A DNA stretch of 55,118 bases from a virus (IMGVR_UViG_2563366941_000007:1-55118), one strand, 5' to 3'; shown: positions 9,930 through 51,828, counted from the stretch's first letter. Notes: a model not told the origin generated them from the letters alone. Made by a program: numbers and translations.

Positions 9930-10635
9930 TTACTGCGAAAGTTTGTTAATGGAAAGGAAGCCGCCAAAGTTGCCGACGTTATTGCGGAACTTACAACCGC
10001 TCAGGCATTTGCTGCATTTATCCTTCGTGATATCGGACGTTGGCTGGTCATATTCATCCGCGACAGCCGGACCGCTATAACCGCACTCGTCACCGCGATA
10101 GGTCCAGGTGCAGGTGTTGGCCAGCATGATACGTCCCGGAAAAACAGCGCCATCCGTTTCCGTCGGCGTGGACAGTACAAAGGAGGCACTCACCGCGCTC
10201 AGTTCGCTGCACTGCTCAATGCGCCAGCGGCTGATCACCTCCTGCTCCGGATCGGCGTAACTGTTTCCGTTGACGAAGTTCAAAGTTCACCGCATCCAGA
10301 AAACGGGCGTAAACCTTACGCCGGACCACCGTTCCGCCGACCAGACTCTGCATATCTTCCGCCATCCCGGTGACCATACCGTACAGGTTAGAAACCGTCA
10401 GCGTGGGGCGCGTACTGGTGCCTTTGCCATTCAGTTCAAAACCGCTCCCCTGAATGGGATACGGCTGATACTGTCGCCCCTGCCAGGTGACCGGCTCACC
10501 TTTTTCGTTCTGCTCATTACAGAAAAAATAACGTTCTCCACCGACCTCTGTCAGGTCGATTTCCCAGAGCACCACGCTGGCCGACTGCTCCGCACGGGTG
10601 CATTCATTCAGTGTTTCCTGCCGGATATCCTGCAT
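9930..10635 (-). pseudogene. L: Tail tip protein L, frameshifted
   Basis: Two ORFs (10216..10635 and 9930..10283) in different frames together cover gpL (MQDIRQETLNECTRAEQ... and ...NFVNGNSYADPEQ...); the frame break coincides with a 7-bp tandem duplication. Confidence 0.8.
10276..10289. repeat. 7-bp tandem duplication (AAGTTCA x2) causing the L frameshift
   Basis: Direct reading: AAGTTCAAAGTTCA; removing one copy restores ...FLDAVNFVNGNSYADPEQ... Confidence 0.8.
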
Positions 10636-16463: not shown

Positions 16464-16862
16464 TTATTGCATTCTGGCCAGGCCGCGCTCTGTCATTTCG
16501 GCTGCCACACCGGCAGAGACACGAAACGCCGTTCCCGGCAGCACAAATGCCACAGGTTCATCCCGCGTGGCGTGAAGTGCATCAGTATGCAGCTTCACCA
16601 GTGCCACGACCGTGACCAGTTCAGACGTATCCAGAATCACGGTATCCGGCTGCGCTGATCCCACCTCATTTTCATGTCCGGTCAGCACATTTTCCCGGCT
16701 GAGAGGGGTGTCCTGACCGGCAGTTTCATCCGTGTCATCAAGCTCCTCTTCCAGCTCTGCCACACGGAGCGCCAGTTCTTCTTTCGTCCCCGTCAGGCTG
16801 ACATCACGGTTCAGTTGTTCACCCAGCGACCGGAGACGGGCAATCAGTTCATCTTTCGTCAT
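16464..16862 (-). CDS. FI: DNA packaging/head completion protein FI
   Basis: Matches gpFI from MTKDELIARLRSLGEQLNRD...; start 16862 is preceded by GGAGGA. Confidence 0.9.
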   Translation of the reverse strand: MTKDELIARLRSLGEQLNRDVSLTGTKEELALRVAELEEELDDTDETAGQDTPLSRENVLTGHENEVGSAQPDTVILDTSELVTVVALVKLHTDALHATRDEPVAFVLPGTAFRVSAGVAAEMTERGLARMQ

Positions 16863-16903: not shown

Positions 16904-17694
16904 TTACGCCAGTTGAACGGACACGAACTCATCAGGATCAGCCAGCAGCATCAGCGGTGCTGACTGAATCATGGTGAACTCTCGCGCCGGATCGCCGGAT
17001 GTCTTCCAGTTTTTCGGATAACGGGGAGACGCATTAATACCCTCACTCAATGCATCCGCATCCTGAATACAGCCATAGGTGCGCAGACCGCGTGCATGAG
17101 TGTTACCCAGCACCATCGTGTTGTCCGGCAGGAAGTTCTTTTTGACGCCGTTTTCCACGTACTGTCCGGAATACACGACGATGGCCACATCTCCATACAT
17201 TCCCTTATAAGACACCGCTTTGCCCAGGTCTTTTACCGCTGTCTCCAGTTCGGAATGAGAGCCGCGACGGGTATCCAGCTTCTCCCTGACGGCTTTGAAG
17301 GAACGGAACAGCGCCCAGCCTTTCGGATCAAACACGATGATATTCACCACGCCGCTGGCGTTCAGCGCGTAGGCTTCGATATCGTCGGTCGGATCATACG
17401 TGGACTTGTCACGCTTGCTCCACTCCGTGCCGCCGGACTGCGTGATGTTGTTGGCCGCACTGCGGCCCATATCCACCTCAACCGGATCGAAGGCTTCACC
17501 AGTCATGGTGTATTTGCCCTTGAGCACGGCAGAAACGGCCTGCATCTCTTCGACCTGAGCAATGGCCAGCTCTTCGTCACGCATGTTCTGCATGATGATG
17601 CGACGGCGGCGGTAAGCCGGGTCCGCCAGATTCTGCGGATCTTCATCCGGCAGGCGACGCAGGGTCATCTGCGGATTCACCTCATGCTTGGGTT
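16904..17694 (-). pseudogene. E: Major capsid protein E, C-terminal fragment (codons from ...KPKHEVNPQMTLRRL to the stop)
   Basis: Translation matches about 260 C-terminal residues of lambda gpE; the N-terminal 91 codons lie 11.6 kb away at 29261..29536. Confidence 0.9.
17685..17694. repeat. 10-bp direct-repeat core TGCTTGGGTT, left copy (element/E junction)
   Basis: Identical 10-mer at 29292..29301; both sit exactly where E homology breaks. Confidence 0.8.
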
Positions 17695-17766
17695 ACATGA
17701 GTCAAATATGAAAGGAACTGAATGATTTTTAATGAAATAAATGGCTCTCTCTATCAAAATACAGCT

Positions 17767-17792
17767 AAAAAGCAATACACGTAGCAATACAG
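17767..17792. repeat. Tandem GCAATACA(N) motifs (AAAAAGCAATACACGTAGCAATACAG), candidate integrase arm-type sites, left end
   Basis: Near-identical motif AAAAAGCAATACAAGCTGCAATACAG at 29139..29164 at the opposite end of the element. Confidence 0.45.
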
Positions 17793-17821
17793 CGCTTCGC
17801 AAAGGTATGTCACTATATCTA

Positions 17822-18790
17822 CTAGTGCCAACCAGAATACGAATATCTTTGCTTTGCTTCTTCTGGGCTCATACCCACTAGTAAAGATACTAATTCAAAG
17901 TCAGGTTGTGGAATTGGAATCAATGCAGCCAAATATGCTGGCTTATTGAGAACAATTGTTGATAATTTAGCTTTATTCACCTTAGATAACTCAATATTAC
18001 TTTCCGCTACCTTCGGGAACTCCATAATAAATGAATCAATTTCCCTTATGAGATAATCGATCAACGCCACTATACTTTCTGTCAAATCAATATATTTTGA
18101 CAACTCACTAGCACCAATTTCTTTCTTTATTTCATCCAATTTAATTTCAAACACTGGCTTGTCTTTACTGGCAATATTAGACAAACGTTTCTTTAAATCT
18201 GAATCAAGCTGATTCCTGACAATTAAACTTTTCAAAACAAAATTATAATTAAACAAAAAAGCATCAATTCGAGCAATATTCCTCCATGACTTTCCAATTT
18301 CTTCATCTGACGGCATAATAAGTTCATGTTTTAGTATCTTGTACTTAATAAAAAAAACAAACCTCTCAAATAGAGATTTATTAGCTGTGGGTATCTTTTT
18401 TATAAATGAAAGACGGCTAATATCGAAATTTACCTCCCCGGCGTTAAATAAAAATTCATTTATTGCCAGCGCTCTTAATATTGGATTTCTAGATCTCAAA
18501 CCAATATAACTACTTTTAATTCCCACAAGTGTATTTATCATCTGAAAAGAAACCATCATAAGCGTATTAGCAGAATTAAATTTCTCCGTTTCTATTTTAA
18601 TCTTCTCCTGCCTATTATTGATGCAATAAGCAGTTAAGCCTCCCATAAGCGCCGATAAAAAAGATAATGCAATAGGGAATACATAATCTTTTGTATAATC
18701 AACATCTGCTTTCAACATTAGTATTGCTTTAGCAATCAAAACTGCATCAGGGGTCATGTTAGAGCCGTCATTAAAAATTAAACACAACAC
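17822..18790 (-). CDS. Hypothetical membrane-anchored protein (N-terminal TM segments plus ~250-aa soluble domain), AT-rich cargo gene
   Basis: 322-aa ORF in a conspicuously AT-rich segment; hydrophobic stretches AVLIAKAILML and VFPIALSFLSALMGGLTAYCI near the N-terminus; no recognisable family by eye. Confidence 0.55.
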   Translation of the reverse strand: MLCLIFNDGSNMTPDAVLIAKAILMLKADVDYTKDYVFPIALSFLSALMGGLTAYCINNRQEKIKIETEKFNSANTLMMVSFQMINTLVGIKSSYIGLRSRNPILRALAINEFLFNAGEVNFDISRLSFIKKIPTANKSLFERFVFFIKYKILKHELIMPSDEEIGKSWRNIARIDAFLFNYNFVLKSLIVRNQLDSDLKKRLSNIASKDKPVFEIKLDEIKKEIGASELSKYIDLTESIVALIDYLIREIDSFIMEFPKVAESNIELSKVNKAKLSTIVLNKPAYLAALIPIPQPDFELVSLLVGMSPEEAKQRYSYSGWH

Positions 18791-19454
18791 CCATAAAATA
18801 TAACAGCTTATTGTTTAGAAAAGCAATATCATACACTCTATGATAAGCGTAATATCTGACAGGCATGGTGTGTTACGACACTTAATTAAACGTAATTTGC
18901 TAAAATTTTACACACAGAATCACACCAGGCTCTAACTCTCCTTTCATTACAATTGTAAGCATACAATTATCCTACCAGAACTTTATTGTTGAGCTCTCCC
19001 TTTTGAGCCCATCCCATAATGAATTGACGAAAGAACCGTATCTGTGGAGTAATCATTTCTGCGCGGTTCTATGTCGAAGACAAAATGTGGTATGCGCATC
19101 TAGTCAGAGGGAAAGCAATTTTTCAGGGAAATATCATCTCTACATGGTTAAAACAACCAGAAGAAGTTATCAAGCAAGTTGGGTATGAAGATTTTCCTAT
19201 AATAGTAACGAAACGGGTTTCACCTGAGCGGTTGTGTTCGATCCGCCACAATACGCATAGGATGCCCTGTAATCCGTATTCTGCTTACTCAACAGCTTAC
19301 CAGCAGGACTCGTAAGGCTGTTGCGATAGTGCAGAAGTAGGCCACGACCATAAAGTGAAGCCAGTGGCGCGTTATCGACTACTTTAGTGTAGAGCCTGAT
19401 TTCAACGCAAGCATGAGAGTTTTTTCTGGCGATAGGCCGTGACAAACAGCAACA

Positions 19455-19675
19455 AAATCAGAGAAAGGAAACGGCAGAGGCCAAAAAGCCCGTTTTCAGC
19501 GCCTGTCATTTCCTTTCTTTTCAGGGGGTATTTTAAATAAAAACATAAAGTTACGGCAAAGAAGAACGGAAAAGCCTTAAACCGGAAAATTTCCATAAAT
19601 AGAGAAAAACTGCGCGCCTGACGCCCCGTAACGTTCTGGATCGCCGGAAAGGACCCGCCAGCCAGAGCGGGCCCT
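19455..19675. other. cos-like packaging site of the satellite (cosB R-site and IHF-site homologs; divergent cosN)
   Basis: Aligns base-for-base with much of the prophage cos region 35480..35720 (e.g. GAAAGGAAACGRCAGAGGCC, TTTCCTTTCTTTTCAGGGGGTATTTTAAATAAAAACAT, CCTTAAACCGGAAAATTT); differs at about 5 positions within the cosN-equivalent segment. Confidence 0.75.
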
Positions 19676-19682
19676 AATTTCA

Positions 19683-20066
19683 TCAACCAATCAGCTTATA
19701 GCGACCATCCCGTGCATTGCGGCGTACACGCTCAATCTTGAGGCATAGCGCCGCATCTGGCTTTTTTGGGACAGGTACGCGGCAATATTCAGAAGCGCGA
19801 GGAATATTATTTATCCAGTCGATCACTTCACTTAAATACCAGGCCTTACGCCCTTCCGTAACCTGCACACGCTCCGGGAACTCTCCACTAGCCTCAAGGT
19901 TTAGCAGTGTACGACGACTCAGGGTTGTAATTTCCATCACCTGATTCATATCAACAAGGCGCTCGCTTAAACACATTTTGTCAGCGATAGCTTTTAATTC
20001 CTCTACAGCTGGATTCGGGTACATCATTTCGGCAATTGGCTTAAGGTCATTGTAATCATTCTGCAT
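19683..20066 (-). CDS. AlpA/Nu1-like HTH protein next to cos; candidate packaging-redirection (Rpp-like) or regulatory protein
   Basis: 127-aa ORF with HTH-like segment MEITTLSRRTLLNLEASGEFPERVQVTEGRKAWYLSEVIDWI; functional call is inference from position beside cos. Confidence 0.45.
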   Translation of the reverse strand: MQNDYNDLKPIAEMMYPNPAVEELKAIADKMCLSERLVDMNQVMEITTLSRRTLLNLEASGEFPERVQVTEGRKAWYLSEVIDWINNIPRASEYCRVPVPKKPDAALCLKIERVRRNARDGRYKLIG

Positions 20067-20077
20067 TGTATCCCCCT

Positions 20078-20419
20078 TTACACACGAGCCAGCGGCTGAA
20101 CAGAAATACCTGAGCCAACAAACGCTGCAACCTTTACTGACAGTTCTTTAACAGACTCAGGCCAGTTCAGAGCATCAACATTTAAGACACCTGTCTTATA
20201 GACCTGAGCCTGTGTTTTTTTCGCGGTGTCGATTTGTACAGCGGAAACATAAACCGCTTTACCTACGCTCGAACCATCCCATACCACCAGTGCACCTGTT
20301 GCATCTTCCTGCATCAGTGGCGTAAATGCAGGAATTACCCCTTTATTAGCTGAAAATATCCCCAGCGTAGTCACCAGTGCTTCAGTGCCAGCCATGAGTT
20401 CAGTGTAATGAGTAGCCAT
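20078..20419 (-). CDS. Head decoration protein, divergent homolog of lambda gpD
   Basis: 113 aa; shares PLM...VVWDGS...YKTG...WPE...AAFVGSGISV pattern with gpD (PLML...VAWDGT...YKSG...WPE...[10 protein letters not shown]). Confidence 0.7.
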   Translation of the reverse strand: MATHYTELMAGTEALVTTLGIFSANKGVIPAFTPLMQEDATGALVVWDGSSVGKAVYVSAVQIDTAKKTQAQVYKTGVLNVDALNWPESVKELSVKVAAFVGSGISVQPLARV

Positions 20420-20428
20420 TGCTCCCCC

Positions 20429-21469
20429 TTAGCCAATGCGAACGGTAACAAAACGATTGATGCGGGCCGGTATTGGCTGTGGTGCTGAATGTGTCTGCAC
20501 ATATTCAATAGCCGGATCACCAGGCACAATATAGTTTTTCGGTGCAAGTTCGGCTTTAGTCAGCCCCATTCGGATTAGCTCCGGATCCTGAATACCGCCA
20601 TAGGCGACAATCCCCTGAAGAGCCGTATTGCCAAGCACCATCAAATCAGGATCAAGGAAATGTTTTTCTGTTCCGTCCTCGTCGGTATAACGCCCGCTGT
20701 AAACAACAATCGCAACATCGCCCATATACCCTTTAAAACTCACCGAATCACCAAGGTCTTTAAGGGCCGTTTCCAGTTCGGAATTAGAACCACGACGGGT
20801 ATCCAAAGCCTCTTTTATCGCTCTGAATGAACGGTATTTCTTCCATACATTACCACCCATAATGATGATATTAGTGACGCCCTCACTAAATTCTGCGTAG
20901 CTCTCAATATCATCATTTGGATCAAAAGTTTCTTTATCCTTACCTGACCACTCAGTACCGCCAGACTGAGTGATGATATTTTGTGGTTTTATATTCCAGT
21001 CCAGCTCATAACGTTCAATACCATCGCCCTCAATGATATTTTTCCCCGTTGTGATTGCCTGAACAGCAAGCCATTCAATACGTGCACGAATAGCTTTAGC
21101 CTGATTTACAATCGCCTGTTTAACTTTAATATTACGCGCCCCAAAAGCATTGTATTGCTCAGGTGACACACCAACAGGGCGCACAGCTAACTTATTTGGA
21201 TCAATGCTGCTTTTCGGCTTCATATAACCTGGACGAATTGTTTTTGATTCGTATCCCTCATCTCGTGAAACTTTACTGCCCACCATAGGAGAGCAAAACG
21301 CCGCGATCGGGATATTTGGATCGTCGATCGTATCAAGAATAATGTCTCTCGATTCAAACATTACCGAGCGAGTGAAAAACAAACTGGTAAACAACGCATT
21401 TAATTTTTTTTGTACATCTACAGCATTAACCACCTGTACAAGCTGAGTAGGCGAATATAAATCAACCAT
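20429..21469 (-). CDS. Major capsid protein, divergent homolog of lambda gpE
   Basis: Shares PGYMKPK, QSGGTEWS, DTRRGSNSELETALKDLG, GDVAIVVYSG, MVLGNT blocks with gpE; start at 21469 is preceded by AAGAGGA. Confidence 0.8.
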   Translation of the reverse strand: MVDLYSPTQLVQVVNAVDVQKKLNALFTSLFFTRSVMFESRDIILDTIDDPNIPIAAFCSPMVGSKVSRDEGYESKTIRPGYMKPKSSIDPNKLAVRPVGVSPEQYNAFGARNIKVKQAIVNQAKAIRARIEWLAVQAITTGKNIIEGDGIERYELDWNIKPQNIITQSGGTEWSGKDKETFDPNDDIESYAEFSEGVTNIIIMGGNVWKKYRSFRAIKEALDTRRGSNSELETALKDLGDSVSFKGYMGDVAIVVYSGRYTDEDGTEKHFLDPDLMVLGNTALQGIVAYGGIQDPELIRMGLTKAELAPKNYIVPGDPAIEYVQTHSAPQPIPARINRFVTVRIG

Positions 21470-21751
21470 ACGCATCCTCTTTGCATTCATTAAAAATAAT
21501 TGTGGATATATGCTATCACCGATATTTGTCATGCGAACACATGCAACCGAGTGCAATGTTGTATAAAGTTTTGGGGTGACAACTTCAGTGCGGACAATTA
21601 GTGTTAATATCTTCACTCCCTTTGGTCGGGATTTATGTAGCATGCCGGAAAATTTATTTTTTCCGGCCTTTTTTTATTGGCAATATTTAAAACGGGGGTG
21701 ATGCTGCCAACTTACTGATTCAGTGTATGATGGTGTTTTTGAGGTGCTCCA

Positions 21752-22027
21752 GTGGCTTCTGTTTCTATCAGCTGTCCCTCCTGTTCAGCTACTGACGGGG
21801 TGGTGCGTAACGGCAAAAGCACCGCCGGACATCAGCGCTATCTCTGCTCTCACTGCCGTAAAACATGGCAACTGCAGTTCACTTACACCGCTTCTCAACC
21901 CGGTACGCACCAGAAAATCATTGATATGGCCATGAATGGCGTTGGATGCCGGGCAACAGCCCGCATTATGGGCGTTGGCCTCAACACGATTTTACGTCAC
22001 TTAAAAAACTCAGGCCGCAGTCGGTAA
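21752..22027 (+). CDS. insA: IS1 InsA
   Basis: 91-aa [43 protein letters not shown]... Confidence 0.95.
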
Positions 22028-22449
22028 CCTCGCGCATACAGCCGGGCAGTGACGTCATCGTCTGCGCGGAAATGGACGAACAGTGGGGCTATGTCGGGGC
22101 TAAATCGCGCCAGCGCTGGCTGTTTTACGCGTATGACAGGCTCCGGAAGACGGTTGTTGCGCACGTATTCGGTGAACGCACTATGGCGACGCTGGGGCGT
22201 CTTATGAGCCTGCTGTCACCCTTTGACGTGGTGATATGGATGACGGATGGCTGGCCGCTGTATGAATCCCGCCTGAAGGGAAAGCTGCACGTAATCAGCA
22301 AGCGATATACGCAGCGAATTGAGCGGCATAACCTGAATCTGAGGCAGCACCTGGCACGGCTGGGACGGAAGTCGCTGTCGTTCTCAAAATCGGTGGAGCT
22401 GCATGACAAAGTCATCGGGCATTATCTGAACATAAAACACTATCAATAA
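21946..22449 (+). CDS. insB: IS1 InsB reading frame (InsAB' transposase made by -1 frameshift)
   Basis: ORF ...[50 protein letters not shown]... typical of IS1 InsB. Confidence 0.9.
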
Positions 22450-22463
22450 GTTGGAGTCATTAC

Positions 22464-22913
22464 CTAAAACGGGATATCATCTCCCCATTGCTCATTATCT
22501 CCCACTGGTGGCTGGCTTCCTTGCTGATCTGCCTGTTGTTTTGCTCTGTTCAGTGCGTCAGTAGCCTGCCCCTGTTGGCCTTTATTGCCGCCCGGTCGCA
22601 CCGATCGCGCACTGATTACGCTGTCTGCGATAACCTGCCAGCCCTGCCGCGTTTCGCCGTTCTGTCCAGTCCACTGGCTCATCTGCATGTTACCCGCCAC
22701 GCTCAGGAGTTCGCCTTTGTGATGCTTTGCCAGCGCGTCGGCTTGTCTGCCAAACGCCAGGACAGATAACCACATCGTCGCCTGACCGTCATCCGACTGA
22801 CTGCAGGGCAGTGATACCGCCATACGCGCCAACGTCATGGGGGTGCCCTTGCTGGTCTGTTTTGTCTGCGGGTCGTCCACCGACCGCCCGTAAACTGATA
22901 TTTGCGCCGTCAT
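22464..22913 (-). CDS. Single-stranded DNA-binding protein (SSB-like)
   Basis: 149-aa ORF with OB-fold-like core and acidic C-terminal tail ending DDIPF; the present stop codon TAG is formed by the last base of IS1 plus the target duplication. Confidence 0.7.
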   Translation of the reverse strand: MTAQISVYGRSVDDPQTKQTSKGTPMTLARMAVSLPCSQSDDGQATMWLSVLAFGRQADALAKHHKGELLSVAGNMQMSQWTGQNGETRQGWQVIADSVISARSVRPGGNKGQQGQATDALNRAKQQADQQGSQPPVGDNEQWGDDIPF

Positions 22914-23155
22914 GCGGCCTGCTCTCCGGACTTAATATTGATTGTTGTCACTTCCTCCGCTTCAGCAATCTCCCGTTCGGTCAGAGTGGCAAAGTTTGCA
23001 GCCGCCGTTGTCATGAATGCGCTAATCAGTTCGGGATGTGCTTTCGCGTATCCTTCCCCGGCGTTGCGGTCGATGATTTTTATCGACACCCTTAACCAGT
23101 ATTCCGTCAAATCAAGGGCGTGCGATTGTGATTTTTTTGTGTGCTTCGCTGTCAT
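22910..23155 (-). CDS. Hypothetical protein (81 aa) upstream of ssb
   Basis: ORF with overlapping ATGA junction to ssb; no recognisable family. Confidence 0.4.
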   Translation of the reverse strand: MTAKHTKKSQSHALDLTEYWLRVSIKIIDRNAGEGYAKAHPELISAFMTTAAANFATLTEREIAEAEEVTTINIKSGEQAA

Positions 23156-23205
23156 AGGCTTTATCTCACAGCAGTAAATTAAAATTTTTGCGTTTTAACC
23201 CTTCA

Positions 23206-23430
23206 TCTGTTCACCTTTTGATATTTTCTCTTTTAATTCATAATGTTAATGGGTAAACAGTTTCACAAAAACTATTCACCAACTGTTCACCACTGTTCAC
23301 CCTTGAAGCTCAATAAACAATCAAAAAGGTGAACAGTGAATAGTTTGGTGAACAGTTCATAAATAACTGTTCACCCTATAATATACTGATATAAAAGATA
23401 TTTATGACAGGGTGAACAGTGGTGAACAGT
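23206..23430. repeat. Iteron cluster (about 9 copies of GGTGAACAGT / ACTGTTCACC in both orientations): candidate replication origin
   Basis: Repeats read directly at 23206, 23272, 23282, 23292, 23328, 23347, 23367, 23411, 23421; AT-rich spacers; immediately 3' of the rep gene. Confidence 0.7.
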
Positions 23431-23442
23431 TATTCCATAAGT

Positions 23443-25263
23443 TTAATTTTTGCTATCGTCATTAGTGACCGATACACATGATGGCATCCAGTCTTCTGAT
23501 TCCTCCGTCAGTGTCACGTTTGAACGCAAACCGTGCTTCGTTTTCCGTTTCATATACTCCCTGCCATATTCCGCCATTGCCCCCGGCATATCTTTACCGA
23601 AGCGCGTCAGTGTTACAGGTTTACCAAACCCATGTGCCCTCATATAAGCCAGATAGGCATGATAGAGATACCTGCGTGGGCTGAATGGCACAATTTCAGC
23701 ATTACCCACTAACAGGCCATCACACATTACCGATGCCATGAGATAGCCGCAGAAGTCCACCAGCGAATCCCCCTCTCGCTTTATCGCCAGTGCTTCTTCA
23801 GATTTCTGCTGCTCATATAACAGGCGTCTGGCTTCGTCCTGATCAGCAAACCGTGTAAGCAGATGACGAATCACTACCGCCAGCTCACCTTCTATTTTTT
23901 CCGCCAGCATCGAATCGCGTTCGTTCTCCGGTACAACTTCCGAAAAATTGAATATCACCCGACGACGTGAGATCCCCCCGCTGCGGTCACTGAATGACAT
24001 GGCGTTATTGTTAACCGCCAGCACTACTGCCGGAATACGCGTTGAATAGGGGGCTTTGTGTTTCGGGTCAATTGCCACCTTGTCACCGCCTGTAATGGCC
24101 TTAATCCCTGCCCCATCACCAGCGTAGCGGGTCATATCCGGCATGATAATCAGCGAAAAGCCAACCACTAACGCACGTTCCCTTGCATCTTCCAGCGCCT
24201 TCATGCTTGCTGATACTGTATTAGCCTTACCCGCCAGCATGGTGCAAATCTCCGCCATCACACTTTTACCACTTCCCCCCGGCCCTGTTACCTCAATGAA
24301 TAACTGCCAGTCGTACCGGTTCGCCAGCACCATGAATAATGCCGCCAGTACGCGATCTGCCTTGCGGTCATTCTCAGCCACCGAACGGCGCAACCACTTC
24401 CAGAAATTCGGCGCATGTGTTGCCAGCGTTTCCCCCTCTGCTGGTGGGCTGAAAGGTAATTCACTGGCAATTAACAACCAGTCGTTTTTGTTATGCTCCC
24501 GAAAATTACCAGTTCTGGTATCAAATACCCCGTTACTGAATCCAATCAGGTTACGGGCTGTATTCCCCATTACAGGCAAACTTAACTTCATGGTATCTAC
24601 CGCCGATTTAATAGCGTTCTGCGAATAGCTGATCTCCGCATCAATGAAAATCTGCGCCATAGCACGCTGTAACTCTTTATCCTGAACCGGCTCCCATACA
24701 ACGCCGTTGTAATGATGAACGGTGTCAGAGTCGGCATTGATTGCCAGTTCACCGCCATAATGTGCAAGGAGAACTTCACCGCGCTGGCTGGCCCCCATCT
24801 GATTCAACGCCAAAGATGAAGCACGCTCGTCATTTTTGCGCTCTGCCTTCTTCACTGGCAGTTCAATCACCAGACTTTCCCCATGCTCCGCTTCAGCTTT
24901 TAGGCCGACAAGGCGCGGAGTCCAGTCTTCAGGCTCTCGATCAACAAAGCTACGGTAACAACGTGCTTCCTTTACGCCTGCAATAGCAAGTAATGTCGCA
25001 ACCTTCGTCAGACTTTTCTCTGCAATCTTTCCGGCACGATAAACACGCACATAATGACGGCCTTCATCGATAATTTGCATATCATCCAGGTTTTCCAGTT
25101 GTTCCGTACCCAGAATGACTGGTGGTGTATCATCTGCTGCAATATGCTTACCTGCCCATTCATTCCATTCTTTTGCATGGCTCCAGGCATCACTGCCAGC
25201 AAAAATGATGACTTCCGTCATTTTGTCGCGCGGTTGGTATTTTAAGTTCGGAGCACGTTTCAT
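23443..25263 (-). CDS. Replication initiator, P4-alpha/D5-type SF3 helicase family (primase-helicase-like)
   Basis: 606-aa ORF with Walker A GPGGSGKS and surrounding D5/SF3-helicase-like sequence; adjacent to the iteron cluster. Confidence 0.7.
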   Translation of the reverse strand: MKRAPNLKYQPRDKMTEVIIFAGSDAWSHAKEWNEWAGKHIAADDTPPVILGTEQLENLDDMQIIDEGRHYVRVYRAGKIAEKSLTKVATLLAIAGVKEARCYRSFVDREPEDWTPRLVGLKAEAEHGESLVIELPVKKAERKNDERASSLALNQMGASQRGEVLLAHYGGELAINADSDTVHHYNGVVWEPVQDKELQRAMAQIFIDAEISYSQNAIKSAVDTMKLSLPVMGNTARNLIGFSNGVFDTRTGNFREHNKNDWLLIASELPFSPPAEGETLATHAPNFWKWLRRSVAENDRKADRVLAALFMVLANRYDWQLFIEVTGPGGSGKSVMAEICTMLAGKANTVSASMKALEDARERALVVGFSLIIMPDMTRYAGDGAGIKAITGGDKVAIDPKHKAPYSTRIPAVVLAVNNNAMSFSDRSGGISRRRVIFNFSEVVPENERDSMLAEKIEGELAVVIRHLLTRFADQDEARRLLYEQQKSEEALAIKREGDSLVDFCGYLMASVMCDGLLVGNAEIVPFSPRRYLYHAYLAYMRAHGFGKPVTLTRFGKDMPGAMAEYGREYMKRKTKHGLRSNVTLTEESEDWMPSCVSVTNDDSKN

Positions 25264-25526
25264 TTGTTACCTCCGGCAACTAACATTGCCCGAATTTTAC
25301 GGATATAGCCTGCGGCACGCCTCTGATTATCTGTCTTGCAATTTTTTACCAGAATGAAATCTCTTTCGAACTGCTGACGCGGCATAACACATTCAAAATC
25401 ATAACCATCACGCAAATAAGAGACACGACGATCATCAACCGAAATAATCTTTACCCGATAGCCATAGCTGTCTTTGAAAATATCCCCAAGGCTGATTTTT
25501 GAATGAGTGGATTTGACCGCTGGCAA
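25260..25526 (-). CDS. Hypothetical protein (88 aa), translationally coupled to rep
   Basis: ORF with ATGA overlap to the rep start. Confidence 0.4.
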   Translation of the reverse strand: MPAVKSTHSKISLGDIFKDSYGYRVKIISVDDRRVSYLRDGYDFECVMPRQQFERDFILVKNCKTDNQRRAAGYIRKIRAMLVAGGNK

Positions 25527-25554
25527 TAAAGCCAGAAAATTTATTTTTCATTTT

Positions 25555-25779
25555 TTATTCTCCGGTATAGCTCTGGTCGTGTATTTTTATAGCTTCATCC
25601 AGCTCTTTGATGACAGGATCAAGTAACGTAATTAACGCTCCAGCTAAATTAGCATCCCGTTCATCGTGTTCCGCATTTGTTGTCCCATCAAGCCAGGTTG
25701 ATAAGATTTCTCGCATATTTTTGCCACAAACGAGCGCGTTTTCAGCATGTGTCAGCACTTTAAAATAAAGATCATTCAT
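25555..25779 (-). CDS. Hypothetical protein (74 aa)
   Basis: ORF in the same operon orientation; overlaps the upstream ORF by 8 nt. Confidence 0.4.
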   Translation of the reverse strand: MNDLYFKVLTHAENALVCGKNMREILSTWLDGTTNAEHDERDANLAGALITLLDPVIKELDEAIKIHDQSYTGE

Positions 25780-25975
25780 GGCACACCTCCTGACGAATAC
25801 GGGCGGCGAATATCATCACGTAGCCAGTTGGGGATTGCAGCCGGGCTTCCTGTTCGCTGGCGGCCTCGATGGTAATCACGCGCGGTTGTGCCGTACTCAG
25901 GGCGATAAAACGCCAGATGTATTTATTCAGGTTGTGCGGGTCCCGCCCTTGCGGGTGTGTGGTATGATTTCTCAT
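25772..25975 (-). CDS. Hypothetical protein (67 aa), first gene of the leftward replication operon
   Basis: Start at 25975 is preceded by GAGG at good spacing; the ORF track's longer 104-aa version is probably over-extended. Confidence 0.4.
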   Translation of the reverse strand: MRNHTTHPQGRDPHNLNKYIWRFIALSTAQPRVITIEAASEQEARLQSPTGYVMIFAARIRQEVCHE

Positions 25976-26010
25976 AGCTACCTCGATACTGTTGCTATCG
26001 TTGGTGGTTA

Positions 26011-26056
26011 GAAGCCCGTTGGTGTTCCTAGCACCTTCGGGCTTTGCTTTTTTAAG
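26011..26056 (+). terminator. Two-tier GC hairpin followed by a T-run (terminator-like or small RNA 3' end)
   Basis: GAAGCCCG...CGGGCTTT stem enclosing GGTG...CACC, followed by GCTTTTTT; no plus-strand gene upstream. Confidence 0.3.
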
Positions 26057-26068
26057 TGCCTCCGTGTT

Positions 26069-26118
26069 AAGGTGGTCACCTAACAATGAAAAGGCTAATT
26101 CAATAGGTGGTCACTTGT
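26069..26118. promoter_or_regulatory. Direct repeats AGGTGGTCAC (two copies ~36 bp apart) upstream of the RHH gene; candidate operator
   Basis: AAGGTGGTCACCTAACA at 26069 and AGGTGGTCACTTGTCAACG at 26105, in the divergent intergenic region. Confidence 0.35.
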
Positions 26119-26174
26119 CAACGATCAAACGCGATAAAAGTCCTAAGGGTGATGGGCAATCTCCACAATTCAGA

Positions 26175-26306
26175 ATGCGAATTTCTCCAGAGCTAAAAGA
26201 GCAATTCGACAAAGAAGCGCAGAGCGACGGCATAAGCCTAGCCAACTGGCTTAAAGAATTAGGGCGCAAAGAGCTGCTACGGCGCGGTATTGAACCAAAA
26301 GGATAA
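26175..26306 (+). CDS. Ribbon-helix-helix (Arc/CopG-like) DNA-binding protein
   Basis: 43-aa product MRISPELKEQFDKEAQSDGISLANWLKELGRKELLRRGIEPKG has an RHH-like strand-helix-helix pattern; start chosen inside the longer ORF 25992..26306. Confidence 0.5.
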   Translation: MRISPELKEQFDKEAQSDGISLANWLKELGRKELLRRGIEPKG

Positions 26307-26333
26307 GAATAATTGAAGTCAAGGAGCTAACAC

Positions 26334-26690
26334 ATGAAATACGAATTCTTCGCAACAAGTAGCAGTAGTTTGGATGTATACATAGTCACTGTATCAAACG
26401 ATTCTGGCTCTCTAATCATGACTTGTAATTGTCCAGCAGGAAGTAAAGGTATTCTATGTAGACACCGTAAAGCTTTAATTACCGGAAAAATCCGCGGTAT
26501 ATTCACTCCCCCAAGAAGGAATAATCCCGAAAAATTACAAGAAGCTATAAATTTAATAGCCACATATGGCATAGATAAAACATTAAAGTTGTACACTGAT
26601 GAGTTAGAACGAGCAGAACAGACTTGGATAAGTGTTCGCGATAATTTGAGAGCAATGATAAACGCTCTTGTTGAACCACCTAAATATTGA
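26334..26690 (+). CDS. Small SWIM-type zinc-finger protein (CxCx9CxH), AT-rich cargo gene
   Basis: 118 aa; motif MTCNCPAGSKGILCRH; strongly AT-rich coding sequence. Confidence 0.5.
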   Translation: MKYEFFATSSSSLDVYIVTVSNDSGSLIMTCNCPAGSKGILCRHRKALITGKIRGIFTPPRRNNPEKLQEAINLIATYGIDKTLKLYTDELERAEQTWISVRDNLRAMINALVEPPKY

Positions 26691-26821
26691 ACTGTTCACA
26701 TTGCCTATCAGGCGATAACCTCGTATTCTGATTAAGGCTAACTATATACTCACATTGGCGACCAATTCTGGTCGCCTTTATCTACCATTTTTATAATATC
26801 ATAGATTAAGAGTGTTAATCC

Positions 26822-27676
26822 TTACCCCCTGAATGGAATTGATGAGGATTTAATTTCCACAGAACCAAATCCTCTTGAATCCAAAAACATTTTTATACCA
26901 GCCTCAATAAAATCATAATCGCTTGTCGGGCCAATTGTAATGCTTTTAATTGGTAACTTTCTATTATCTTTATTATTAATAATGATATAAGGGATGATAC
27001 CATTATTATTTATTCTAAATTTCACATCTGGCATTTGTATCCACGGAGTAAACACCAGTCTAAATTCATTTTCTTCGATAAAACTAGGATGTTTAAAAAA
27101 TGGGATATATTTAGATATAAATTGATACGTAGAGACCATTGTTACAAAATGATCATTCATTTCTTTAATGTTAATACCATTACAAGAAAAAAACTCATCC
27201 AACTCCTTACTCATCTTTGTAATATCGTCATTATTTGAATATATAACATCATGTGCAACACAATTTAAATAAATATTTTGACAAAAACTCACAAGTTCAT
27301 CCGCATCAAATTCAATGCAAACGCCCTGTTTATTTCCGTAACCTCTCCACTGACTTAACTTATCGTTTTCTTTACAAAAAGATATGCTATAAACATGTTT
27401 ATCAATCCCTTTTTCTTTTTGTAACTTCCCTTTCTCATACATGTCAAGAGACTTGAGCAAAATAGTTTTCTTATCTTTTGGGATGATATTATCATCAACT
27501 ATTTTAATTGTATTTCGAAAACATTCACATCCATGGTTAGACTCCTCTTTATCATTTAAGAAATATATATTTGTAGCCCATAAAGAATTAGAGTCTAATA
27601 TACCTTTCAAACCAAAAAGATCTGTATAATGAAATATAGCCACAATGCCCCACCTAATAGTTAAGTCGTTTCCCAC
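26822..27676 (-). CDS. DUF2971-like protein, AT-rich cargo gene (candidate defence-associated)
   Basis: 284 aa; N-terminal FHYTDLFGLKGILDSNSLWATNIYFLNDKEE fits the DUF2971 signature as recalled; AT-rich. Confidence 0.55.
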   Translation of the reverse strand: MGNDLTIRWGIVAIFHYTDLFGLKGILDSNSLWATNIYFLNDKEESNHGCECFRNTIKIVDDNIIPKDKKTILLKSLDMYEKGKLQKEKGIDKHVYSISFCKENDKLSQWRGYGNKQGVCIEFDADELVSFCQNIYLNCVAHDVIYSNNDDITKMSKELDEFFSCNGINIKEMNDHFVTMVSTYQFISKYIPFFKHPSFIEENEFRLVFTPWIQMPDVKFRINNNGIIPYIIINNKDNRKLPIKSITIGPTSDYDFIEAGIKMFLDSRGFGSVEIKSSSIPFRG

Positions 27677-27891
27677 TCACCTCGAATCCATGCCTGCACT
27701 TCTGAAAGACGATATGCAACAGCAGTGGAACCAATCTTGATCCGCTTAGGAAATTTTCCTTCCTTCTCCAGCTTCCAGCGTGTGCTGTTCGCAAGAGTGG
27801 TTAGCTCCCGACATTCTTTCTCACGGATCATACGATCGATGTTAGGAATGTACTCCAGACCCTTTTTATCAACAATTGCCATTTTTTTCAT
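27661..27891 (-). CDS. alpA: AlpA-family transcriptional regulator/excisionase-like HTH protein
   Basis: 76 aa; ...LTTLANSTRWKLEKEGKFPKRIKIGSTAVAYRLSEVQAWIRG matches the AlpA (CP4-57 regulatory) family; adjacent to int. Confidence 0.75.
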   Translation of the reverse strand: MKKMAIVDKKGLEYIPNIDRMIREKECRELTTLANSTRWKLEKEGKFPKRIKIGSTAVAYRLSEVQAWIRGEWETT

Positions 27892-27892
27892 G

Positions 27893-29128
27893 TTAACCAG
27901 CCTTTTGTTTGAGGATTGTCACTTTTGAATCAGCACCTGCGATGCTATTGAGATATGTAGTCCAGAGTTCCAGAGCATCCAGTTTTTTAGCCATAAACTT
28001 ACTCCGGTTGTAAACACCCGCCACGCCAGGTAGCGCATGGCCTAACAGTTGTTCTACTACATAAAATTCAACACCGAGATCACTTAGATGAGTAGATAGC
28101 GTTCTTCTAAGGTCGTGTAGTGACCATTGTTTTTCATGGCCCAAACGTTTACCGATTTTCCCCCCAATCTTGCTTACGCTTTCTCTAATTCGCAGACTTC
28201 CCAGCACATAACCAGTATGTCTTGTCTCTTCGTGAACATCCGTTACCCACTGTCGTAGAATTTCAGGTACTGGTCTGACGATTTCAACACCAGTTTTTGA
28301 GTGATCTTTTGGTACCGTCCAAACCCAACTTTCGAGATCCCATTCGCTCCATTCAGATAATCGGGCTTCACTCATTCGACATCCAAATACTGTACAAAGC
28401 ACAAACATTTTTCGCGTGTATTCAGACATTAGTTTTAAATCAGGCTCGACAAAAATTGCCTTCCAGAGCTGGCCCAGTTCGGCTTCATCCAGAACCCGAT
28501 CCCGCTTACCTGCAATCTGCCCCACATCACTCATGCGCAAATCCTTTAAAGCATCACATGTCGCGTACTGGCGTACCCGACAAAAACGAAGAGCTAATTT
28601 AGTGTCAGAAAAAACATACGCCGCCATAACTGGTGCATTACGTTTAATTCGGTCAAAACAGTCCAGCCATTCATATAGGTGAGTGTCATTTACAGGCAAA
28701 TGACCGATATAGGGAAAGATATGCTTTCGAAATCTGCCAAGCGTTACAGCATGAGTTTTACGACGCACCTTACAGTAATTTTCATACCAGTAATTTAGTG
28801 CATCCTCCACTGTGACCGGCTTTAAGCGTTCTTCAGCCTGAATCTTAATCTGGATACGCGGATCACGTTTGTCAGCCAACCAACCACGGCACTCGTCGCG
28901 CTTTTCCCTTGCCTGTTTGAGTGACATATCAGGATATTTACCCAACGTTAGCCAGACCGGAGCAGCCCGGCCACCTGCTAACCTGTAGAAGAAAACAAAG
29001 CTCACAGCCCCCTTGGTACTCACACGAATAGAAAGCCCCTTTCCATCAGCAATGGTGATCTGCTTTTCTCTGGGTTTCCCCAGATATCCTTTAAGCGCTT
29101 TGTCGCTCAGTTTGTTCTCGCCAGCCAT
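27893..29128 (-). CDS. int: Tyrosine integrase, P4-like family
   Basis: Start MAGENKLSDKALKGYLGKPREKQITIADGKGLSIRVSTKG... has a P4-integrase-like N-terminus; C-terminal HDLRRT...LLGH...Y catalytic-region motifs; sits at the element end. Confidence 0.85.
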   Translation of the reverse strand: MAGENKLSDKALKGYLGKPREKQITIADGKGLSIRVSTKGAVSFVFFYRLAGGRAAPVWLTLGKYPDMSLKQAREKRDECRGWLADKRDPRIQIKIQAEERLKPVTVEDALNYWYENYCKVRRKTHAVTLGRFRKHIFPYIGHLPVNDTHLYEWLDCFDRIKRNAPVMAAYVFSDTKLALRFCRVRQYATCDALKDLRMSDVGQIAGKRDRVLDEAELGQLWKAIFVEPDLKLMSEYTRKMFVLCTVFGCRMSEARLSEWSEWDLESWVWTVPKDHSKTGVEIVRPVPEILRQWVTDVHEETRHTGYVLGSLRIRESVSKIGGKIGKRLGHEKQWSLHDLRRTLSTHLSDLGVEFYVVEQLLGHALPGVAGVYNRSKFMAKKLDALELWTTYLNSIAGADSKVTILKQKAG

Positions 29129-29138
29129 TTTTAGCCCC

Positions 29139-29164
29139 AAAAAGCAATACAAGCTGCAATACAG
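29139..29164. repeat. Tandem GCAATACA(N) motifs (AAAAAGCAATACAAGCTGCAATACAG), candidate arm-type/operator sites, right end
   Basis: Matches the motif at 17767..17792; lies just upstream of the int start codon. Confidence 0.45.
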
Positions 29165-29260
29165 AGATGATTGCAACACACAGATAACGAGGAAAATTCA
29201 GTGAAAGCGCCAGATAAACTTATTCTTTATTATCAAAAGATTAAGTGTAAAAACCAGCAA

Positions 29261-29536
29261 CTACACGAAAGCCTCAGAAAGCCATGCTAAGTGCTTGGGT
29301 TTGACATATCCCGGCGTAAATTCAGAGGTGGAGCCGCCACGGGAGCGGATAACCTCACCGGAAACAATCGGCGAAACGTACAGCGCCATGTTTACCAGTC
29401 CCGGAATTTGTGAGAGATAGACTTTCTCCGTAGTGAAGGGATAGCTCTCACGGAAAAAGAGACGCAGAAACAGCGGATCAAACTTAAATTTCTGCTCATT
29501 TGCCGCCAGCAGTTGGGCGGTTGTGTACATCGACAT
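29261..29536 (-). pseudogene. E: Major capsid protein E, N-terminal fragment (91 codons) fused to 9 element-derived codons
   Basis: MSMYTTAQLLAANEQKFKFDPLFLRLFFRESYPFTTEKVYLSQIPGLVNMALYVSPIVSGEVIRSRGGSTSEFTPGYVKPKH then LAWLSEAFV-stop. Confidence 0.9.
29292..29301. repeat. 10-bp direct-repeat core TGCTTGGGTT, right copy (element/E junction)
   Basis: Identical to 17685..17694. Confidence 0.8.
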
Positions 29537-29555
29537 AAAAAAATCCCGTAAAAAA

Positions 29556-29571
29556 AGCCGCACAGGCGGCC
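29556..29571 (-). other. GC hairpin with minus-strand T-run between D and E (terminator/attenuator-like)
   Basis: GCCGC-ACAG-GCGGC stem flanked by an A-run on the plus strand. Confidence 0.3.
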
Positions 29572-29933: not shown

Positions 29934-31233
29934 TTACACTGGTGTGTTCAGCAAATCGTTAACGGCATCAGATGCCGGGTTACCTGCAGCCAGCGGTGCC
30001 GGTGCCCCCTGCATCAGACGATCCAGCGCAGTGTCACTGCGCGCCTGTGCACTCTGTGGTGCTGCAGCCAGAATGCGGCGGGCCGTTTCCACGGTCATAC
30101 CGGGGGTTTCTGCCAGCACGCGGGCCTGTTCTTCGCGTCCGTGAGCCTCCTCACAGTTGAGGATCCCCATAATGCGGCTGTTTTCTGCCGCAACCGCAGC
30201 GGTGATCTGCGCGTTCACGTCCGGCTGCGCCGCGCTGGCGTTTTCGCCCTCCGTCGCTGGCACCACGTCAGTAACGTCAGCCTGCGAAGCAGTGGCTGAA
30301 ACAGTTGTTGATTGAGTCTCTTTGGTCATTCGCCCTCCTGAGAGACGGGATTTACGCGCATCCAGTGCATCACGCATAACGGTGATCGCATCGGTGCTGT
30401 TGACAAGTTCATCAGCCAGTCCGGCATCAATGGCCTCCTGACCGCTGTACACTGCAGCCTCGGTATCCAGCACAGCCTGCACAGACAGGCCGGTATATGC
30501 CGACACCTTCTGCGCAAACATCCGGCGGGTTGCGTCCATCCGGGACTGCAGTGTCTCCCGGACGTCATCCGGAAGATGGCTGTAGGGGTTGCCATCCACC
30601 TTATGGCTGCCGCTGTAAATCAGCGTGATTTCCACGCCCTGTTTCTCCAGGGCAGCACCGTAATTACTGTGAGCCATCATGACGCCGATGGAGCCTGTCC
30701 GGGCGGTCTGCGTGACCAGACGCCGGGAGGCGGCGCTGGCAAGCAGCTGACCTGCACTGCAGTTCATGTCGTTGGCCAGCGCCCATACCGGCTTTATGTC
30801 ACGCACACGGGCGATGATGTCAGCGCAGTCAAATGCCCCTGCCACCATCCCGCCTGGCGTGTCCATATCGAGCAGAATGCCGTCCACCATCGGGTCGCTG
30901 GCAGCCTGTTGCAGACGGGCGATAATGCCGTTGTAACCGGTCATCCCCGAATACGGCTGCAGCGCCCGCGTCCGGCTGACCAGCGTGCCGGACACCGGCA
31001 GCACGGCGATGCCGTTCATGACCTGATAACTGCGGGCCTGTCGTGGTCAGTCATCATCAACGGATAACGCCAGCGCCGCGGGTGCCTCTCCGGCAGTCAG
31101 GCTGTCGCCGGACACCGCATCCGTCAGGCGGCTGATCCCAAGCTGGCCTGCAAGCGCACAAAAGAAAACCCGCGCATAGGCGGGTTCAAGCATCAGCGGC
31201 TCATTAAAGGCCATGCTGGCAATATGCGGGAGA

Positions 31234-35480: not shown

Positions 35481-35720
35481 TGTTCATTCCACGGCCAAAA
35501 ACAGAGAAAGGAAACGACAGAGGCCCAAAAGCTCGTTTTCAGCACCTGTCGTTTCCTTTCTTTTCAGGGGGTATTTTAAATAAAAACATTAAGTTACGAC
35601 GAAGAAGAACGGAAATGCCTTAAACCGGAAAATTTTCATAAATAGCGAAAACCCGCGAGGTCGCCGCCCCGTAACCTGTCGGATCGCCGGAAAGGACCCG
35701 CAAAATGATAATAATTATCA
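35480..35720. other. cos: Prophage cos site (cosB R-sites/IHF site and cosN; cohesive-end 12-mer AGGTCGCCGCCC at 35667..35678 on the plus strand)
   Basis: Reverse complement of the lambda left-end sequence GGGCGGCGACCTCGCGGGTTTTCGCTATTTATGAAAATTTTCCGG..., directly upstream of Nu1. Confidence 0.9.
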
Positions 35721-37297: not shown

Positions 37298-37568
37298 GAT
37301 GTTACCGTAGTATGTGAGTATCCATCGAATAGACACCAAGCAAAAAAGCTCCCGAAGGAGCCTTCATTTTCACTTTTTTAAATCCAACGACAGACGGCTG
37401 GCATTTAAGTATTGTGAAATATTATCAAATGTAATCATCATTGATTTACAAAAGATACATTTTGCCCCGAAAGGATTCATGTCAGAAACATCAAAAGATG
37501 ATGTTCTATACTGGGAACCATGACAACACGGGCATCTAAAGTGAATATGGTTTGTAATATTGTCTACC

Positions 37569-37781
37569 TCAAAGCGCCACTACATGAACAGCGGCAGGAC
37601 CTTTAGGTCCGTTCTCAATACCAAATTCAACTTCCTGATTCTCAGTTAATGTTTTGAAATCGTTGCTCTGAATTGCTGAGAAATGGACAAACACATCTTT
37701 GCTGCCATCTTTCGGCGTGATGAAACCAAAACCTTTTTCAGGGTTAAACCATTTCACTAAACCAGTCATTTTGTTAGACAT
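37569..37781 (-). CDS. cspI: Cold shock protein CspI-like
   Basis: 70-aa [45 protein letters not shown]... Confidence 0.85.
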
Positions 37782-38143
37782 AATTATTACCTTTTGAAGA
37801 AATTAGCCCTTGGGCAGAATGGTCCGAAAAAAAATATCAGAGAGAAAAACCAACAAGGAAATCTCAAGAGGTACAAATAATAAAATTATAACAATGACTG
37901 CTTCAGATAAATTTGTAACAAACCAGAACACCATTAACGCATGATTAACCACCCATAGCAAGGATTACTTTTGTAAAGAAAAACACAGCAATGAAAGAAT
38001 AGCTTTATTTATTAATAAAACGTGTCATTCTGATTAAGACCTTTTATCTTACCCTTAAGATTTCAGGAATTTTGGCTCATGGAAGAGTCCTTTTTATTTA
38101 AATTTTACATTCCGCGATGTAAATGTTCCGATTTAATATTACC

Positions 38144-40171: not shown

Positions 40172-40452
40172 GAGATTGTGGTGCTTTTTGTGGGAGTCAT
40201 CCACTTACGCACTTTGTTTTGCCATGCCAGCAGTTAGCTTCTGCTGTAAAACTATTCATGCAGCAAACCTGCACTTCACCACAATGGTTAGCATACTTTT
40301 CCTGATTAAGATTTTGCCAAATATGCTAGCCATTGTTTCATGTATTGGACCTCCTTACTTTTTATTAAAGAGATCCAATATTCACTACTCTGTCCGTATC
40401 TCTACTCAGGCATCAGCCTTCTTCGTTATCGTATACAGACGAGCGATGAATT

Positions 40453-40668
40453 TTAATCAGTAATGATGACATTTGCTGCTGCAGGACCTTTAGCACCACT
40501 CTCTATAGAGAAGGTAACCTTTTGACCTTCAAATAAGGTTCGATAATTATCATTCTGAATCGCAGAAAAATGCACAAACACATCTTTACTACCATCAACA
40601 GGAGAAATAAAGCCGAAACCTTTATCAGCGTTAAACCATTTTACTAAACCAGTCATTTTATTTGACAT
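40453..40668 (-). CDS. cspB: Cold shock protein CspB
   Basis: 71-aa [53 protein letters not shown]... Confidence 0.9.
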
Positions 40669-40968
40669 TCTACATTCCTTAACTTGAGCCTTTCGGCATA
40701 AATGGTTTGCATAACAGAAACGACTTCGTACTTAATTGGAGAGACTCAAAGAAGGAATAAGTGAATAACACCTGAAATGAGAACTGCTTTAGTAAACTAC
40801 TTCGTATATCGTCTGTTCTTCAAACCGACGCAATCATTAACGCATAGTTGAACATATGAAGCAATGTTTATTTTAGACATCCAGCCATCTTCAACCCCAT
40901 CAAAAAACTATAGCTTTCTTCAGGAACGTGTGTATAGTGCGCCAAGTTATCAGTATTAAGGAATTTTT

Positions 40969-50572: not shown

Positions 50573-50614
50573 TGAACCGCCCCGGGTTTCCTGGAGAGTG
50601 TTTTATCTGTGAAC

Positions 50615-51505: not shown

Positions 51506-51828
51506 TTTTTCCAGAGGCGGTCGAACTCCGCCTTCGCAAAATAAGCGGAAGCCTGGCGAAGGATATCGTTACTGCGGCGCAGTTCACGATTTTCACGTTC
51601 CAGCTCTTTCAGACGCTGACGTTCAGCGGTGGTGAGTCCTCCATCACCGCCCCCGGTATCCCGCTCATGCTGGCGAACCCAGACACGCAGAGTCTCCGGC
51701 GTACAGCCAATCTTTGGAGCAATGGAACAAATTGTCGCCCATTGTGAGTCATATTCGCTCTGACTTTCCAGAACCATACGGACTGCCCGTTGACGGACTT
51801 CGGGGGAAAAACGAGTATTTTTAGTCAT
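51502..51828 (-). CDS. IS3-family transposase OrfA
   Basis: 108-aa [55 protein letters not shown]... with leucine-zipper-like C-terminus. Confidence 0.85.

Follow-up and report, generated by a model that had tools for sequence, protein, structure and literature searches.

A probable helper-embedded PICI, close to Eco567.11capE, in capsid gene E of a Qin-type Escherichia coli prophage

The viral sequence IMGVR_UViG_2563366941_000007:1-55118 (the whole stretch of 55,118 nucleotides is called the window) contains a satellite of 11,607 bp that splits gene E, for the major capsid protein, in the prophage around it. The element is, with high probability, a helper-embedded phage-inducible chromosomal island (PICI) of the site group E:Phage_cap_E:80, residing in a Qin-type lambdoid prophage of E. 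coli, and a close variant of Eco567.11capE. Such islands were described as "helper-embedded PICIs" (HE-PICIs) by Tommasini, Mageeney & Williams (NAR Genomics Bioinform 2023; PMC10111431), who reported 201 instances at site E:Phage_cap_E:80. Their founding example, Eco567.11capE (11capE), is inserted at codon 80 of a lambda-E-like capsid gene in E. coli NRG857c (PMC10111431). The class, the integration site and essentially the sequence family were published in 2023, and the element is a rediscovery, not a new kind of element. We document its anatomy, the precise restoration of gene E upon its removal, and its identity with the published family.

Insertion in gene E and identity with Eco567.11capE

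The satellite is a discrete insertion at 17695-29301, a length that includes one copy of the recombination core and an IS1 element; without IS1 and its target duplication the size is 10.8 kb. A 10-bp direct repeat, TGCTTGGGTT, bounds the insertion, and this repeat and excision in silico place the ends exactly where the initial annotation had drawn the limits of a satellite architecture. The sites and gene fragments at the two junctions are as follows.

16904-17694, minus strand: C-terminal fragment of helper capsid gene E (Phage_cap_E profile positions 94-328, 7e-50)
17685-17694: 10-bp identity block at attR, TGCTTGGGTT (read in gene orientation, AACCCAAGCA), in agreement with the published block 'aacccaagca' and attR sequence
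17771-17792, minus strand: doubled motif of the arm type, cTGTATTGCtacgTGTATTGCt, at about 81 bp from the centre of the core (repeat-family search)
29139-29164, minus strand: second doubled TGTATTGC motif, about 132.5 bp from the core centre, between truncated E and int
29261-29536, minus strand: N-terminal fragment of helper capsid gene E (Pfam Phage_cap_E profile positions 1-78), ending in satellite DNA
29292-29301: attL copy of the identity block, in agreement with the published attL; partial matches of other genomes end here

Deletion of 17695-29301 in silico rejoins the open reading frames (ORFs) 29261-29563 and 16904-17680, both on the minus strand, into one uninterrupted gene of 341 amino acids (aa). 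Its product is 97% identical to what we take to be the lambda gpE sequence. A natural empty site is found in strain USDA-ARS-USMARC-51408 (locus L002), where a prophage 97-99.7% identical to the one in the window has an intact capsid gene. The int-attL-E junction is common to 170 of 5,426 complete E. coli genomes, and a further 3,051 genomes match the capsid side alone, with matches that stop exactly at base 29292. GC content varies from 0.32 to 0.56 inside the insertion, as against 0.55-0.62 in the flanking late-gene DNA.

The site-group assignment follows from an insertion in late gene E near Phage_cap_E codon 80, co-oriented with the helper and without replacement sequence; the main satellite genes all run with the helper late operon on the minus strand. 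The att sites agree as well. In the published family, arm motifs lie 81 +/- 2 and 132 +/- 2 bp from the core, and the arrangement TGTATTGC-n4-TGTATTGC was called unique to HE-PICI attP sites (PMC10111431). In the window, the doubled tgTGTATTGCantgTGTATTGCa motif occurs twice, upstream and downstream of the centre, at about 81 and 132.5 bp.

The sequence of the type element was retrieved and compared directly with the window. Comparison with known E. coli PICIs had been suggested by the initial annotation, and the eleven core proteins, all encoded on the minus strand, turned out to be 90-100% identical to those of 11capE. They are listed here with their profile matches and their identity to 11capE.

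27893-29128, minus strand: tyrosine integrase (Int) of P4-like type (Arm-DNA-bind_3 4e-19, Phage_integrase 2e-16; the mechanical ORF extends to 29179); 99.5% over 411 aa
27661-27891, minus strand: AlpA, excisionase/regulator family, 76 aa (PF05930 3e-15); 100%
25772-26086, minus strand: Icd-like protein; 90% (51 aligned residues)
25555-25779, minus strand: phrog_2196 protein; 100%
25260-25526, minus strand: DUF4222 protein; 95%
23443-25263, minus strand: primase-helicase, 606 aa (D5_N, DUF5906 superfamily 3 ATPase, Pox_D5); 99.8%
22910-23155, minus strand: phrog_1231 protein; 98.8%
22464-22913, minus strand: single-stranded DNA-binding protein (SSB); 96%
20429-21469, minus strand: major capsid protein of the lambda E family, 346 aa (Phage_cap_E 9e-41); 99.1%
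20078-20419, minus strand: head decoration protein of the lambda D family, 113 aa (HDPD 4.5e-15; 38% identity to helper D); 99.1%
19683-20066, minus strand: second AlpA-family helix-turn-helix (HTH) protein, 127 aa (PF05930 8e-9, phrog_2790 1e-49, PDB 8c3t AlpA 2e-9); 100%

The identity of Int also places the element in the integrase clade of 11capE. The two satellites further share the integration site, the 10-bp identity block 'aacccaagca', the attL and attR sequences, the doubled arm motif, the gene order and the same cos, including its variant cosN. The window departs from 11capE in three places only: 25927-27672 (alpA to the Icd-like gene), 17728-19452 (cos to attR) and IS1, which is extra in the window copy. 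In the first of these regions the window has DUF2971 and SWIM proteins where 11capE has a hypothetical protein and YlcI/YnfO, and in the second it has a 322-aa protein where 11capE has GmrSD_N and HEPN. The helpers differ too, a mutationally crippled Qin-type prophage in the window and the icd-integrated prophage 50icd for 11capE.

Replication, packaging and cargo genes of the satellite

Profile searches bear out the gene calls of the initial annotation, i.e., a P4-type integrase, AlpA, AT-rich cargo, three small leader genes (25260-26086), a 606-aa helicase, ssb, capsid genes, an HTH protein and a second cargo gene. The Walker A motif GPGGSGKS that it had read in the helicase is located at residue 327 of the primase-helicase. 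It had also stated that terminase, portal and tail genes are missing, and Pfam and PHROG profile searches of the element indeed gave no domain of a terminase, portal, protease, tail or lysis protein. The layout is that of a Gram-negative PICI: int and alpA are co-oriented at one end, the primase has an adjacent origin, the length is 11.6 kb, and lysis, tail and terminase genes are absent. The predicted iteron cluster is present beside the primase-helicase gene, and its nonamer is confined to this interval within the 55-kb window.

23207-23430: putative replication origin with eight exact GGTGAACAG iterons, four per orientation, in AT-rich DNA

The capsid protein of the satellite is 41.6% identical to helper E and 55% identical to the capsid protein of EcCICFT073. 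An N-terminal extension suggested by a mechanical ORF of 404 aa was rejected, as the Pfam match begins at residue 70 and RefSeq homologues have 346 aa. For the 127-aa HTH protein we considered a relation to Rpp and rejected it: BLASTP against EcCICFT073 RppA and its neighbour gave no match, and a PDB sequence search returned AlpA (8c3t) only, with no RppC chain at E <= 1. A single-sequence AlphaFold model of this protein was discarded for its mean pLDDT of 39.

The cos-like site proposed next to the HTH gene was recovered as a sequence 89% identical to the helper cos (35496-35701) over 206 bp, with a close match in the cosB region of the alignment. The published satellite-helper match is 258 bp at 90% (PMC10111431).

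19453-19658, minus strand: satellite cos (cosQ-cosN-cosB-like), with a predicted 12-nt cohesive end GGGCGTCAGGCG at 19615-19626

The same variant cosN occurs in 11capE and in the HYM1 copy, and a 21-mer around the variant cohesive end is present in 34 IMG/VR contigs. In 33 of the 33 loci with the upstream side present, the 127-aa HTH gene, itself preceded by the satellite genes for the capsid and decoration proteins, has this 21-mer 56 bp downstream of it. Among the best full-length matches listed, no deposited phage genome exceeds about 90% identity to the satellite cos. These comparisons support a cohesive-end sequence that is kept by the satellite family and differs from the helper's, a point not stressed in the original paper (PMC10111431).

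The late cassette of capsid, decoration, HTH and cos is 95-100% identical across the IMG/VR loci L005-L038, and the primase in these loci varies, with 100%, 85% or 43-49% identity and at least three types. Locus L013 has a different integrase (52% identity). From these patterns, satellites appear to exchange entire modules.

In four of the IMG/VR loci (L018, L023, L029 and L031), a Nu1 homologue about 70% identical to the helper's directly follows the variant cos. Some family members may possess a terS gene of their own, or the variant cos may derive from a lambdoid lineage with that Nu1.

Two AT-rich regions carry variable genes, and IS1 is inserted between ssb and the capsid gene.

26087-27676: cargo region 1, GC 0.34-0.39, with a DUF2971 protein at 26822-27676 (minus strand) and a SWIM-zinc-finger ORF at 26334-26690 (plus strand)
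21697-22464, plus strand: IS1, 768 bp (DDE_Tnp_IS1 2e-78), with a 9-bp target duplication TAAAACGGG at 21688-21696 and 22465-22473
17822-18790, minus strand: cargo region 2 (cos-attR hotspot), 322-aa ORF from GTG (311 aa from the first ATG), GC 0.32, phrog_21267 1e-132

The DUF2971 assignment is based on PF11185 (8e-12), with RefSeq product names taken from identical DNA. This allele of region 1 is found in 36 genomes and is not shared with 11capE. The 322-aa ORF, whose allele occurs in 17 genomes, has an apparent N-terminal hydrophobic stretch and gave no Pfam, NCBIfam or PADLOC match. None of the cargo proteins in the window received a convincing defence assignment from PADLOC or NCBIfam, where weak matches to PDC-S31 and PDC-S62 were obtained only.

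The cargo hotspots announced by the initial annotation are supported at the level of the family. Where the variant cos and attR are both present (26 loci examined), the stretch between them always measures 1.7-2.1 kb with a GC content of 0.32-0.42, and at least seven alternative alleles were distinguished.

Allele GmrSD_N + HEPN (11capE)
Allele Mrr_cat restriction endonuclease
Allele TIR_2 + DUF3298
Allele DUF2971 protein
Allele DUF3892 + 228-aa protein
Allele 438-aa protein
Allele 311/322-aa protein of the window

A further allele in other genomes is annotated in RefSeq as a putative abortive-infection protein. Such cargo hotspots agree with those reported for P4-like satellites and PICIs (Rousset et al. 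2022; Fillol-Salom et al. 2022). Across the family, the alleles support a role of the cos-attR region as an exchange hotspot for defence-like cargo, which was not stressed in the original paper (PMC10111431).

Other known satellites share parts of this layout. EcCICFT073, the model Gram-negative PICI, from E. coli CFT073 (Fillol-Salom et al. 2018, 2019), has its genes in the same order (Icd-like, DUF4222, primase, SSB, major capsid and head decoration, then cos), is likewise without terS, and relies on lambdoid helpers. However, its place in the chromosome is separate from that of its helper prophage, which is at icd. The cosB of its cos1 is different, and RppA is required for redirection of the helper TerS, whereas the cosB in the window is helper-like. 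No RppA homologue was detected in the window element, and since there is neither an RppA-like protein nor a divergent cosB, redirection of the Rpp type is not indicated. According to the paper on EcCICFT073, this island is packaged in capsids of full size, and in a later paper a knockout of the PICI capsid gene was tolerated. SaPIbov5 is likewise a cos-type satellite with a diverged homologue (Ccm) of the helper major capsid protein; Ccm forms small capsids, for which the window gives no indication.

The surrounding prophage

The prophage around the satellite has a lambda-type late operon from Nu1 through the side tail fibre and carries dicA, dicB, dicC, DicF, relBE, hokD, cspB, cspF and cspI. 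Judged by comparison with the empty-site strain, it is a full-length relative of Qin. The prophage of that strain lies between ydfJ and rspB, and by similarity the helper in the window would do so too. Its cos is listed below with the RNA elements found by Rfam, which together with dicC, relBE and other genes also point to a full-length prophage of the Qin type.

35496-35701, minus strand: helper cos, immediately upstream of Nu1; its cosN at 35658-35669 is exactly that of lambda, GGGCGGCGACCT
1-62: IS10 RNA-OUT, truncated by the start of the window
704-902: IS009 sRNA, within the tail-fibre assembly region
37542-37927 and 40437-40829: two cspA-type thermoregulators
47675-47846: sok (of hokD)
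54612-54663: DicF

The helper FI (DNA-packaging) protein, encoded at 16467-16862, is 88.6% identical to that of the empty-site relative, compared with 96-100% for the neighbouring late proteins. By this comparison, there is a local patch of mosaicism immediately downstream of the site where the satellite inserted.

Proposed life cycle and alternative readings

As long as the satellite is integrated, helper gene E would stay split, since no replacement sequence for E is carried. Upon induction of the helper, late transcription would read through truncated E into the co-oriented int-alpA pair; a consensus scan found no terminator-like site on the late strand between truncated E and int. In these consensus scans, promoter and terminator matches were no more frequent than in shuffled sequence, and for that reason no transcription map was drawn from them. 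Int, together with AlpA, would recombine the two 10-bp cores, so that the satellite circle is released and gene E restored; the doubled TGTATTGC arm motifs probably position Int. The circle would replicate from the iteron origin by means of its own primase-helicase and SSB. We propose that the helper terminase recognizes and cuts the lambda-like satellite cos, whose cosB closely matches that of the helper, after which the DNA would be packaged into heads and joined to helper tails. The E-like and D-like proteins of the satellite probably contribute to the helper shell or replace it, and the two AT-rich variable regions would carry exchangeable cargo, often anti-phage defence genes. The excision steps have a published counterpart in 11capE: mitomycin C first leads to excision and replication of the entire composite, and precise excision of the satellite with restoration of gene E follows later, as found by qPCR and deep sequencing (PMC10111431).

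A number of observations weigh against the HE-PICI reading and the cycle drawn from it. Virions of 11capE or its helper have never been detected (PMC10111431), so packaging and transfer are unproven for the whole 11capE family. Between the cohesive end predicted for the satellite, GGGCGTCAGGCG, and the lambda-type end of the helper, GGGCGGCGACCT, 5 of the 12 positions are different, and for this reason cutting of the satellite cos by the helper terminase is only assumed. The prophage itself is damaged, as judged against the empty-site relative. Gly69 of head protease/scaffold gene C (S49 peptidase) is changed from GGA to TGA at 31047-31049, a 7-bp tandem duplication (TGAACTT) at 10283-10289 shifts the frame of minor tail gene L, and a 1,310-bp element of the IS3 family at 50575-51884 interrupts replication gene O. 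This IS3-family element contains an Rfam ALIL pseudoknot at 51431-51547, and its ends (TGAACCGCCCCGGG) and length presumably resemble those of IS629. Furthermore, IS1 now parts the capsid-decoration-HTH-cos cassette from the upstream genes and may have a polar effect on it.

The IS1 element and the helper lesions had escaped the initial annotation, whose description of the element as a satellite is otherwise upheld. Its suggestion that the surrounding prophage is the helper holds for the type and architecture of the prophage and fails for function in this genome: with C, L and O inactivated, the prophage is unable to supply all helper functions here. Given these losses and the IS1 in the satellite, the window copy would need a second, intact lambdoid helper and probably is stranded. 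Its genes and sites look intact, and it could respond to an incoming lambdoid phage, a possibility that the survey raises for "abandoned" HE-PICIs (PMC10111431).

These lesions also suggest a different status for the copy, namely that of a dead remnant in which satellite and prophage both decay and the copy can no longer excise, replicate or transfer. This concerns the condition of the copy and not the kind of element, and we regard it as a serious possibility, if on balance a doubtful one. IS1 inside the satellite and three inactivating lesions in the helper besides split E fit such decay, as does the remark in the survey that many helpers of such satellites look truncated (PMC10111431). However, all eleven core satellite genes are open and 90-100% identical to those of a type element with experimentally shown excision (PMC10111431), the two cores are intact, as are the two arm motifs, and an incoming lambdoid phage could provide the helper functions. 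The IS1 insertion lies precisely at the stop codon of ssb without interrupting an ORF, the SSB frame (ending DDIPF) is kept, and the TAG stop is recreated from the duplication and the IS1 end. IS1 is found neither in 11capE nor in the HYM1 copy.

As to the kind of element, the initial annotation had left PICI-type and P4-like satellites side by side, and only the PICI part stood. A P4-like satellite would have a P2-type helper, a Sid-type external scaffold and CI RNA immunity. The window element indeed resembles P4 in the N-terminal domain of its integrase, in AlpA and the Icd-like gene, in a P4-alpha-like primase-helicase (TIGR01613, below the curated cutoff), in its size of about 11.6 kb, in helper cos packaging and in defence cargo hotspots. 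But no ORF contains a Sid, Psu, Delta or Epsilon-type domain (Pfam, PHROG), and Rfam scans, run on the whole window at gathering scores and on the element at E <= 1, gave no CI, C4 or isrK-type immunity RNA, only chance-level matches. With a cos of the lambda rather than the P2 type, capsid genes of the lambda E and D families, and a lambdoid insertion site, neighbourhood and helper, a P4-like satellite is very improbable. The capsid and decoration genes would also suit a capsid-forming PICI (cf-PICI), which builds complete capsids and a packaging machine of its own and takes only tails from the helper. The terminase subunits, portal, protease/scaffold and head-tail connector genes needed for autonomous capsid formation are absent, and we give this reading similarly little credence. 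Least probable of all is that this is no autonomous element and belongs to the prophage itself, as a mosaic or moron region in which head genes are duplicated. The location inside a prophage and the head-gene homologues would be explained, but not the exact insertion with a direct repeat in a gene whose matches in 3,051 other genomes end at the same base, nor the integrase, replication module and cos of its own, nor the presence of the element in prophages at other chromosomal sites, e.g., icd in NRG857c.

Returning to the HE-PICI reading, a speculative extension, to which we attach a low probability, is that the invariant set of capsid, decoration and HTH genes and the variant cos make up a private head-and-packaging module. 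With E split until excision, the first shells would be built from the E-like and D-like proteins of the satellite on helper portal and scaffold, and its own cohesive end GGGCGTCAGGCG together with the HTH protein would give a packaging specificity distinct from that of the helper. If true, this route would differ both from TerS redirection of the Rpp type and from size redirection of the Sid/Cpm type.

Helper-embedded satellites present the case of an integrative element that lands in a phage capsid gene, by which the helper is left without capsid protein until the parasite leaves. This biology has already been published. The window adds a further example, in a Qin-type prophage, and illustrates the decay of such a composite, with the satellite carrying IS1 and the helper three knock-outs.

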